Positions 16,011 through 17,564 of a DNA stretch of 17,786 nucleotides are shown one piece after another. The notes under the pieces are model-generated. The model saw only the letters and a program-made list of their open reading frames with translations. It was not told the DNA's origin and searched no databases. Each line of letters begins with the position of its first letter. The stretch's first letter is position 1. The stretch comes from a virus: UHGV virus genome UHGV-0019208. One strand, given 5' to 3'. The position numbers were made by a program, and so were the translations under genes.

Positions 16011-16031
16011 TGGCGACAGATTGGCGACAGA
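16011..16031. repeat. Tandem direct repeat tggcgacaga-t-tggcgacaga; candidate integrase arm-type binding sites
   Basis: Two exact 10-mers separated by 1 nt, about 95 bp upstream of the att core. Confidence 0.3.
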
Positions 16032-16123
16032 GCATTAAAAATGAGTAAAACGGACAAACATAAGATAATACTAACTTGATGATTTTAAACGCAAGTTAAT
16101 GTTTTTGTTATAGTGAAAATGGT

Positions 16124-16168
16124 ATGTAGGAATTTCGGACGCGGGTTCAACTCCCGCCAGCTCCACCA
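16124..16168 (+). other. Attachment-site core: 45-nt copy of the 3' end of ssrA (tmRNA), not a complete gene
   Basis: atgtaggaatttcggacgcgggttcaactcccgccagctccacca matches the 3' terminus of enterobacterial tmRNA from memory. The sequence upstream does not continue into tmRNA. So this is the duplicated core at a prophage junction. Confidence 0.8.
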
Positions 16169-16204
16169 ATTTTTGATATATTGAAGTTCAGTGAAGTCTA
16201 TCAA

Positions 16205-16236
16205 GCCCGCATGGAACCAGCCTTGCGGGCTTTTTT
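16205..16236 (+). terminator. Rho-independent terminator (GC stem followed by T6)
   Basis: gcccgca ... tgcgggc followed by tttttt, downstream of the ssrA-derived core. Confidence 0.6.
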
Positions 16237-16293
16237 ACGTCTATAGTAGTCTACCGAGAATTGCTAGAATCTACTCGTTATGGCACCCTTTTT

Positions 16294-16338
16294 GGGACCC
16301 AACACAAAGGGTCCAAAACATGAGGGTCCCAAACATGG
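16294..16338. repeat. Three imperfect 15-bp tandem units (gggacccaacacaaa / gggtccaaaacatga / gggtcccaaacatgg) abutting the integrase start codon
   Basis: GGGWCC(C) recurs at 16294, 16309 and 16324 with exact 15-bp spacing. The third unit contains the ATG at 16335. Confidence 0.35.
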
Positions 16339-17564
16339 CAAAAATCGCTAAGAAGCTCACTGACACTGAAATCAAAAGCACCAAACCTGCCGAGAAAGAG
16401 GTTAACCTTTTTGACGGCGATGGTTTGCTCCTGCGAATCGCCCCCTTAGCGAAGGGAGGAAAGAAAAATTGGTATTTCAGATATGCAGTGCCTGTGACCA
16501 AAAAGCGAACTAAGGTGAGCTTAGGAACCTATCCTCACCTTACACTTGCGAAGGCACGAGCTTTACGTGATGAGTACTTGTCGTTGCTTGCAAATGGTAT
16601 AGACCCACAAGTTCATAACACCCACAAAGCCAATGCCCTTAAGGATGCAACGGAACATACATTTCAAGCAGTAGCCAAGAAGTGGCTTGATGAGAAAGTC
16701 AAAACGTCAGGCATCTCCCAGGATCATGCTAACGACATCTGGCGAAGCCTAGAGAGAAATATCTTTCCAACGTTGGGTGATACCCCCATTAAGGAGATTC
16801 GCCCTAAAATGCTTAAACAGCATTTAGACCCCATAGAAAAACGAGGTGTCCTTGAAACACTTCGCCGCGTCATATCCCGCCTGAATGAAATTTTCCGCTA
16901 TGCAGCAACAGAAGAACTCATAGAATTCAATCCGGCTGACAACCTGGGGCAACGGTTCAGCAAGCCAAAAAAACAGAATATGCCAGCATTACCCCCTTCC
17001 GAACTCCCCCGCTTCCTGGTTGCTCTAAACAATGCTTCTATCCGTTTAGAAACAAGGCTACTGATTGAGTGGCAACTTCTCACATGGGTTCGCCCTGGTG
17101 AAGCTGTTCGCACAAGATGGTCAGATATTGATATAGAAACCAGCATGTGGAACATCCCGGCGGAGTTTATGAAAATGAAGAAGCCTCACAAAGTTCCACT
17201 GAGCAAAGAATCTTTGCGAGTCTTGGATTCAATGAAAGCCATCAGCGGGCATAGAGAGTGGGTTTTTCCCAGTATCAAAGCTCCACTCAATCACATGCAT
17301 GAACAAACAGCTAATGCGGCTATAATCCGTATGGGCTTCGGAGGTGAGCTTGTAGCTCATGGTATGCGATCAATCGCTAGAACGGCGGCTGAGGAGTGTG
17401 GCAAGTTTAGAACTGATGTCTTAGAAGCCGCCCTTGCCCACTCGAAAAAAGATGAAATAATTGCAGCCTACAATCGTGCAGAGTATCTCACAGAACGTGT
17501 GGTTCTCATGCAATGGTGGAGTGACTATGTTTCGTCTCAAAAATACAAAGTTATTGCCGCATAA
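16335..17564 (+). CDS. intA: P4-type (CP4-57 IntA-like) tyrosine integrase of a neighbouring element integrated at ssrA
   Basis: From ATG 16335: MAKIAKKLTDTEIKSTKPAEKEVNLFDGDGLLLRIAP... with C-terminal LAHS...AYNRAEY. The track's upstream extension (from 16191) crosses the terminator and is not coding. Confidence 0.85.
   Translation: MAKIAKKLTDTEIKSTKPAEKEVNLFDGDGLLLRIAPLAKGGKKNWYFRYAVPVTKKRTKVSLGTYPHLTLAKARALRDEYLSLLANGIDPQVHNTHKANALKDATEHTFQAVAKKWLDEKVKTSGISQDHANDIWRSLERNIFPTLGDTPIKEIRPKMLKQHLDPIEKRGVLETLRRVISRLNEIFRYAATEELIEFNPADNLGQRFSKPKKQNMPALPPSELPRFLVALNNASIRLETRLLIEWQLLTWVRPGEAVRTRWSDIDIETSMWNIPAEFMKMKKPHKVPLSKESLRVLDSMKAISGHREWVFPSIKAPLNHMHEQTANAAIIRMGFGGELVAHGMRSIARTAAEECGKFRTDVLEAALAHSKKDEIIAAYNRAEYLTERVVLMQWWSDYVSSQKYKVIAA

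Follow-up and report, generated by a model that had tools for sequence, protein, structure and literature searches.

What kind of event leaves only the extreme 3' end of the tmRNA gene, ssrA, lying between a P2-family prophage and a second integrase of a different family? The stretch of DNA analysed here, referred to below as the window, is 17,786 nucleotides (17.8 kb) long, and the first-pass annotation had read its right-hand part as the right junction of a prophage which is at the same time the left junction of another element integrated at ssrA, adding that the two might be a helper-satellite pair sharing one site. The features concerned are as follows.

13693..14325, + strand: gene for a 186-type CI repressor, transcribed toward the integrase gene and att (Pfam Phage_CI_repr and Phage_CI_C)
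14327..15343, + strand: gene for the prophage tyrosine integrase, of 186/Fels-2 type and ssrA-specific (Pfam Int_N and Phage_integrase)
15358..16008, + strand: AT-rich cargo gene (GC 33%) encoding a predicted membrane protein of 216 aa, between int and attP
16009..16123, no strand assigned: phage-derived attR arm (the int-side attP arm), from gapless alignment to related arms
16011..16031, + strand: two direct TGGCGACAGA repeats, predicted arm-type sites of the prophage integrase (repeat search and conservation)
16124..16169, + strand: att core, made up of the final 45 nt of ssrA and one further base (ssrA match and att identity)
16170..16236, + strand: island-borne intrinsic terminator, stem at 16203-16232 and T run at 16231-16236
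16286..16337, no strand assigned: GGGACCC/GGGTCC/GGGTCCC repeats over the start of the second integrase gene (repeat search)
16335..17564, + strand: intact gene for a P4-type (CP4-57 IntA-like) tyrosine integrase of 409 aa (Pfam domain set)
17665..17786, - strand: IS3 end, interrupting the island (match to an IS3 end, and relatives)

Comparison with the ssrA gene of E. coli K-12 showed that 16124-16168 is identical to ssrA nucleotides 319-363 (45 nt, 100%, E 9e-19) and that the rest of the gene has no significant match in the 17.8-kb window, which bears out the earlier claim that the last 45 nt of tmRNA occur here alone. No tmRNA gene was found in the window by ARAGORN, or by Rfam at the gathering threshold, as is to be expected because the fragment is only 45 nt long; at a relaxed threshold Rfam gave a 5'-truncated tmRNA match that ends at 16168. 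The orphan fragment is too short for a tmRNA, is non-functional and is a substrate for recombination only. The stretch common to attB, attL, attR and attP is 46 bp (16124-16169) and so extends one base past the CCA end. Sequence comparison places its limits to the base, since these 46 bp are identical in the window, in the attB, attL and attR of relatives and in the attP of Cartapus, SEN8, MLG42 and RE2010. Nested inside them is the P4-type core CGCCAGCTCCACCA (taking Table 1 of PMC10107115 as the reference). As judged from these identities, 16124-16169 serves the prophage as attR core, and the attL core of the island that follows lies within it.

To the left of this core, as far as 16123, the window consists of P2-family prophage DNA, with Pfam matches to a gpA replication protein, a gpP-like terminase, a portal protein and a Dam methylase, and prophage DNA is 91-94% identical to Felsduovirus and related records. 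The genome is a mosaic, the left 13 kb being nearest to other E. coli P2-like prophages, and GmrSD and PD-T4-7 are carried in the portal/replication hotspot. The gene order cI, int, att is the same in FJ_Ec_21, RE2010, Cartapus, SEN8 and MLG42, and the prophage integrase shows 93-94% identity to the integrases of the last four of these. Its N-terminus has W11, E14 and Y16; W, E and Y have been described as the N-terminal discriminators of 186-type arm binding (Nilsson et al., PMC3448106). The slot between int and att holds different cargo, or is empty, in relatives. In the window it is filled by the gene for the 216-aa protein, which matches phrog_21256, a PHROG without known function, and for which no Pfam or PADLOC match was obtained. 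Homology to other Fels-2-like phages ends at the stop codon of this gene.

The homology of the arm itself starts about 115 bp to the left of the core, and the alignment of 16009-16123 (115 bp) with the attP or attR arms of seven other Fels-2-like phages, of E. coli, Salmonella, Yersinia and Klebsiella, needs no gaps. The Fels-2 record annotates the corresponding stretch as attP. Within the arm, the two copies of TGGCGACAGA occupy 16011-16020 and 16022-16031, with a period of 11 nt, and these are the only two matches to TGGCGRCAG in the window (0.25 expected; 4 of 200 shuffles reach two). The shorter motif TGGCGRCA stands at -113 and -102 from the core in all eight phages (the window and the seven others), and across these eight sequences 14 of the 16 motif columns are invariant as against 42 of the 99 other columns of the arm. 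A second TGGCGRCA pair is present on the opposite arm, at +93 and +104, in all six relatives examined there (the attP of Cartapus, SEN8 and MLG42, the RE2010 end, and the attL of FJ_Ec_21 and SCU-172), with a third copy in four of the six at either +123 (direct) or +133 (inverted). The published arm consensus of 186-type integrases is tgccGCCActt (Nilsson et al., PMC3448106), the reverse complement of which, aagTGGCggca, is the TGGCGRCA motif of the window. The fixed positions and the published consensus thus agree with the earlier suggestion that the tandem repeats could be arm-type sites, and the TGGCGACAGA copies are well supported as predicted arm-type sites of the prophage integrase.

The right side of the core has a different origin. 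A stem-loop and T run at 16203-16236 form a terminator that is identical behind the intact ssrA gene of the phage-free E. coli strain G4/9, and its sequence differs in K-12 and in genomes that have other islands. Because it differs between genomes with different islands, the terminator is part of the island and not of the core chromosome, and it served ssrA before the arrival of the phage. An IsrM gene was considered at this place and rejected, as the relaxed Rfam match was partial, covered the terminator only and scored 42 bits, where the gathering score is 376. With the end of the core at 16169 and its own start at 16335 on the + strand, the gene for the P4-type integrase lies directly 3' of the core and in the same orientation. 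The start was taken as the ATG at 16335, as annotated in relatives, and not as the upstream GTG of the raw open reading frame; the annotated 409-aa product in G4/9 and FJ_Ec_21 is WP_001384082.1. The protein has the Pfam domains Arm-DNA-bind_3, Phage_int_M and Phage_integrase, a set that differs from that of the prophage integrase, and is 49% identical to K-12 IntA over 401 aa. In the alignment R253, K280, H342, R345, H369 and Y379 are invariant, all catalytic residues thus being kept. Terminator and integrase of a different, P4-type family to the right, and prophage DNA to the left, had all been proposed in the first-pass annotation and were all found.

The repeats that overlie the start of this gene comprise one inverted copy and two direct copies at a 15-nt period. 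Analogous sets of other sequence are found upstream of K-12 intA and at both ends of the P4-like satellite of E. coli SCU-172, and we infer that the GGGACCC-type repeats are candidate arm-type sites of the P4-type integrase. The window runs for a further 222 bp beyond the integrase gene, of which the last 122 bp are IS3, the island being cut by this element 100 bp past the integrase stop codon (junction at about 17664/17665). The sequence from 17664 to 17786 matches an IS3 end, and the same junction is present in G4/9, whose annotation has a transposase of the IS3 family there. In FJ_Ec_21 the counterpart of 17565-17667 is uninterrupted island DNA that runs into a serine recombinase gene.

The attL of the prophage and the far end of the island both lie outside the 17.8-kb window and are known from relatives only. 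In phage-free G4/9 an intact ssrA gene is followed by sequence with 99.9% identity to 16124-17786, including the IS3 junction. The tandem layout of the window recurs in E. coli FJ_Ec_21, with an intact ssrA gene at the far end of the prophage: the attL there consists of the complete gene followed by the phage terminator and the second TGGCGRCA pair. A complete ssrA gene at the far end of the prophage was also found in SCU-172, and in relatives the terminator behind ssrA at attL, GGGGTTACGTGAAAACGTAGCCCC-TTTTT, is supplied by the phage. The island in G4/9 and FJ_Ec_21 ends in a degenerate ssrA repeat, CGCCAGC-CCACCAAT, just before ypjA; this is the exact point at which homology between K-12, G4/9 and FJ_Ec_21 resumes and is the end of CP4-57 in K-12, where the annotation has CP4-57 ending at a 14-bp pseudo-ssrA. 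A blastn-short search for the far att repeat in relatives gave chance-level 9-14-mers only, and because of a one-base deletion in the repeat it was found only through alignment of the right end of K-12 CP4-57. An intact ssrA gene immediately upstream within the prophage, or host genes downstream of the second integrase with no second att repeat, had been named beforehand as arrangements that would speak against a double junction; neither was found in the relatives. Comparison with G4/9 and FJ_Ec_21 is instead in agreement with the proposal that the fragment is the right junction of the prophage and the left junction of a second ssrA element.

We therefore consider, with a probability of roughly 90%, that the window holds the attR of a Fels-2/SopEPhi-like P2-family phage integrated in the 3' end of an ssrA gene that was already followed by an island with a P4-type integrase. 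The island would occupy the CP4-57 site in place of CP4-57 and would have brought a P4-type integrase of its own, and a phage with a 186-type integrase would have integrated into the 3' end of the ssrA gene in front of it. The attP would consist of a 46-bp copy of the ssrA end between two arms, each with a TGGCGRCA pair 11 bp apart. The N-terminal domain of the integrase would bind the arm sites and the core-binding and catalytic domains the core, with strand exchange inside the 46-bp identity, presumably with the help of host bending proteins. The ssrA end that served as target would itself have come from the island. Integration would then produce an intact ssrA gene at the left end of the prophage, completed by the 3' end and terminator of the phage, and would leave the former 3' end (16124-16169) stranded, still joined to the terminator, integrase gene and arm sites of the island, so that the stranded fragment would be attR for the phage and attL for the island. 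Either element may be able to excise. The present-day mobility of the island is in doubt because of the IS3 insertion and because no alpA-like or other excisionase gene was seen in relatives of the island.

The order of events in this scheme, island first and phage second, could in principle be reversed, the phage arriving first and the island then using the ssrA fragment at the phage attR, and the short P4-type core (about 14-16 bp) contained in the displaced fragment could in principle be a target for such an event. Several observations make this very unlikely. Phage-free G4/9 has the identical IS3 junction on an intact ssrA gene. The neighbourhoods of the exact 409-aa integrase were examined in ten listed contexts (33 contigs, with near-duplicates collapsed), and in five of the ten the smpB/ssrA region is directly upstream, with the island following it and no prophage between. 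In the other listed contexts the upstream neighbour is a lambdoid prophage (two), a P4-like satellite (two) or a Fels-2-like prophage (one), and insertions of these three kinds between ssrA and the island fit newcomers that target the intact gene. Finally, the exact integrase was found in 10,467 collection blocks, against 1,356 for the exact 216-aa cargo protein of the phage.

Seven genomes in which the right arm of the phage and the core are identical point the same way. They diverge right after CCACCA into five contexts. L014 has the same island as the window, L013 a CP4-57-like island, L012 a P4-like element in decay, and L015 (strain SCU-172) a complete P4-like satellite. L016 and L017 have no island at all, the core running straight into the native ATCATGATTGG flank and ypjA. 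An identical right side on a phage-free ssrA gene, together with five right sides next to the same phage, argues that the phage entered in front of an older island. The island is the basal occupant of the site, and newcomers insert between it and ssrA. As the phage adjoins four downstream contexts other than that of the window, the juxtaposition of phage and island is incidental.

This bears directly on the suggestion that a P4-like satellite lies behind the P4-type integrase, is packaged by the neighbouring P2/186-like prophage and shares ssrA with it for that reason. The integrase is of P4 type, and in E. coli SCU-172 a prophage with this right end is indeed followed immediately by a real P4-like satellite, with integrase, NACHT, psu, delta, sid, alpA-like, icd-like and primase genes (NZ_CP054353.1). 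However, the integrase of that satellite is only 49% identical to the 409-aa integrase, and psu, delta, sid, alpA and primase genes were never found behind the exact integrase in the ten contexts listed. What follows it in all ten is a serine recombinase gene and ParB/RepB-like genes, with RelA/SpoT and nuclease genes beyond these in most. A PHROGs scan of the FJ_Ec_21 island likewise gave no P4 hallmark genes, so that the search for P4-like genes downstream of the second integrase, which had been put forward as the check, found none in relatives. Two genomes (L021 and L025) do have a real P4-like satellite together with the island, but upstream of it and as a separate element. Cos-like or other DNA common to island and prophage was not seen, no similarity between the two reaching an E value below 0.03; a P2 cos query had no match anywhere, even with four mismatches, and as it missed the prophage as well it carries no weight. 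To this must be added the occurrence of the same phage in front of the other right-hand neighbours described above, and the IS3 that cuts the island of the window just behind the integrase gene. The helper-satellite pair is thus highly improbable, and the proposal that the island of the window is a P4-like satellite is close to refuted. The least credible reading, that the junction is the remnant of a deletion or rearrangement which truncated ssrA and not of site-specific recombination, could appeal to the presence of only 45 nt of ssrA in the window, but on its left side the identity breaks off at the very base that bounds the attP core in free phages and the attL and attR cores in relatives. 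The adjoining arm is phage DNA, conserved and with predicted arm-type sites, and ssrA is intact at the attL of a relative that is laid out in the same way.

A phage in ssrA followed by an older island has close parallels among known systems. SopEPhi and Fels-2 integrate in ssrA (PMC3448106), and the Fels-2/SopEPhi/RE2010 group (Felsduovirus and relatives) shares with the prophage of the window the ssrA 3' core, the cI-int-att order and the positions of the arm repeats, as well as P2-like structural and replication genes. The prophage differs from that group in its cargo (the 216-aa protein, and GmrSD with PD-T4-7) and in its host, which is E. coli and not Salmonella. CP4-57 of K-12, like the island, lies directly after ssrA and has the same right boundary, the CGCCAGC-CCACCAAT repeat before ypjA; the two have the same integrase architecture and each gives ssrA its own terminator. 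However, the island integrase has only 49% identity to IntA, and the cargo is unlike. CP4-57 carries alpA, abpAB, rnlAB and more; relatives of the island encode a serine recombinase and two ParB/RepB-like proteins, together with RelA/SpoT, nuclease or restriction-modification genes, defence genes being part of this cargo, and IS3, and showed no homologue of alpA. Islands of P4 type at ssrA whose far repeat is degenerate have already been described (PMC10107115 Table 1).

Tandem arrays at ssrA have the organisation seen here, that is, one intact target gene followed, for each element, by a displaced 3' fragment and an integrase gene. In Salmonella LT2, Fels-2 with its P2-type integrase and Stm27X with a P4-type integrase are both at ssrA (PMC10107115 Table 1, citing Williams 2003), and 125 tandem arrays at tRNA and tmRNA genes were catalogued by Islander (PMC4383910). 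SCU-172 (NZ_CP054353.1) is like the window in that behind an identical right arm and core of the phage comes a P4-type integrase gene in the same orientation, and differs in that its satellite has an integrase of 49% identity and the full P4 gene set, none of which was seen in the relatives of the window's island that were examined. Tandem stacking at ssrA is therefore already known, and the window is an ordinary E. coli instance of it. Its junction leaves current understanding unchanged and provides a resolved example of stacking at the tmRNA gene, in which the newcomer brings a gene end and terminator and displaces the previous copy outward.

A further consequence may be considered for tmRNA itself. 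When CP4-57 excises in K-12, ssrA acquires the one-base deletion carried by the far repeat, and tmRNA is inactivated as a result (PMC10107115). In the relatives analysed here, the far repeat of the island carries the same one-base deletion (T357) as the far repeat of CP4-57. It is conceivable, if unlikely, that the prophage acts as an insulator, such that excision of the island damages the stranded fragment and spares the ssrA gene completed by the phage: the left core of the island is the stranded 45-nt fragment, and excision would therefore hit the fragment only. Excision of the phage at a later time could return the defect to ssrA or could leave the gene unharmed. If the idea were true, lysogeny by ssrA-directed phages would uncouple the ribosome-rescue switch from excision of the island. 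The insulator idea depends on an island whose mobility is doubtful here.

For annotation, the comparison provides exact boundaries for prophage and island, flags the orphan ssrA fragment as non-functional and gives a comparative map of predicted arm-type sites for ssrA-specific 186-type integrases. No complete E. coli genome in the collection covers at least 80% of 15300-17786, the interval that holds the whole junction and the 216-aa cargo gene, and a search of the species-representative genomes for an exact 44-nt junction pattern gave no match. The junction as it stands in the window is present in 50 of 5,426 complete E. coli genomes (about 1%).

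Real tandem occupancy of ssrA by a helper-type prophage and a satellite, a pairing whose possibility had been raised by the first-pass annotation of the window, is found in E. coli SCU-172 (NZ_CP054353.1, about 3,938,400-3,985,000; loci L015, L028 and L029). Here ssrA is followed by a Fels-2-like prophage, whose right arm is the one found in the window, then by a P4-like satellite, CCGCCAGC-----CAATC and ypjA. The satellite is complete, with integrase, NACHT, psu, delta, sid, alpA-like, icd-like and primase genes. In further stacks at ssrA (L021, L025, L019 and L022), the island with the 409-aa integrase is preceded either by a P4-like satellite or by a lambdoid prophage with an Arm-DNA-bind_2 integrase. 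The oldest layer appears to be this island.

In the Klebsiella 'phage' Kp4865-2 (OK490418.1, locus L010, about 2660-4000) a P4-type integrase sharing 49% identity with that of the window again comes after the attR arm, which itself is 97.5% identical, so the tandem layout exists in Klebsiella too. The deposited phage record probably extends past the prophage end.

A set of short repeats in the window overlaps the P4-type integrase gene at its start:

16286-16337: GGGACCC, GGGTCC and GGGTCCC, one inverted and two direct, with a 15-nt period

A comparable triplet of TAGGCCCA is found at K-12 intA, and GGTATAC repeats are present at each end of the SCU-172 satellite. A related sequence, TTTTTAGGACC, is located to the left of the far repeat of the island, at a distance of about 80 bp. 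These repeat sets are probably arm-type sites, each specific to its own P4-type integrase.

Beyond the integrase the island is interrupted:

17665-17786, minus strand: IS3 end, 100 bp past the integrase stop codon

The IS3 junction is identical in the phage-free E. coli G4/9, which lacks the serine recombinase gene that other strains have after the integrase and in which both ParB/RepB-like genes are annotated as pseudogenes.

A partial Rfam match to the Salmonella sRNA IsrM at 16159-16236 scored 42 bits against a gathering score of 376 and was rejected as an IsrM gene. It is restricted to the first 16 and last ~50 positions of the model and, because its 3' part is the terminator downstream of the ssrA sequence here, it suggests an origin of the IsrM terminator from a displaced ssrA-flank terminator.

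The prophage itself has two variable slots. The first, which separates the portal gene from the replication genes, is a known variable slot of P2-like phages, filled by different genes in relatives (AIPR in RE2010, for example) and here by two AT-rich genes (32-36% GC):

3800-5581, minus strand: AT-rich gene
6115-7173, plus strand: AT-rich gene

One encodes a GmrSD-type protein (DUF262/DUF1524) matching HEC-06 in PADLOC and the other a PD-T4-7 homologue (E 3e-144); both look like anti-phage cargo. The second slot is the interval from int to attP:

15358-16008, plus strand: 216-aa predicted membrane protein (33% GC, phrog_21256)

This protein had no match in Pfam or PADLOC. The slot is empty in SEN8 and MLG42, and holds a 506-aa protein in FJ_Ec_21. 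In RE2010 and Cartapus it is occupied by a 401-aa protein, which is annotated there as putative RES. Exact copies of the 216-aa protein are present in 1,356 collection blocks.
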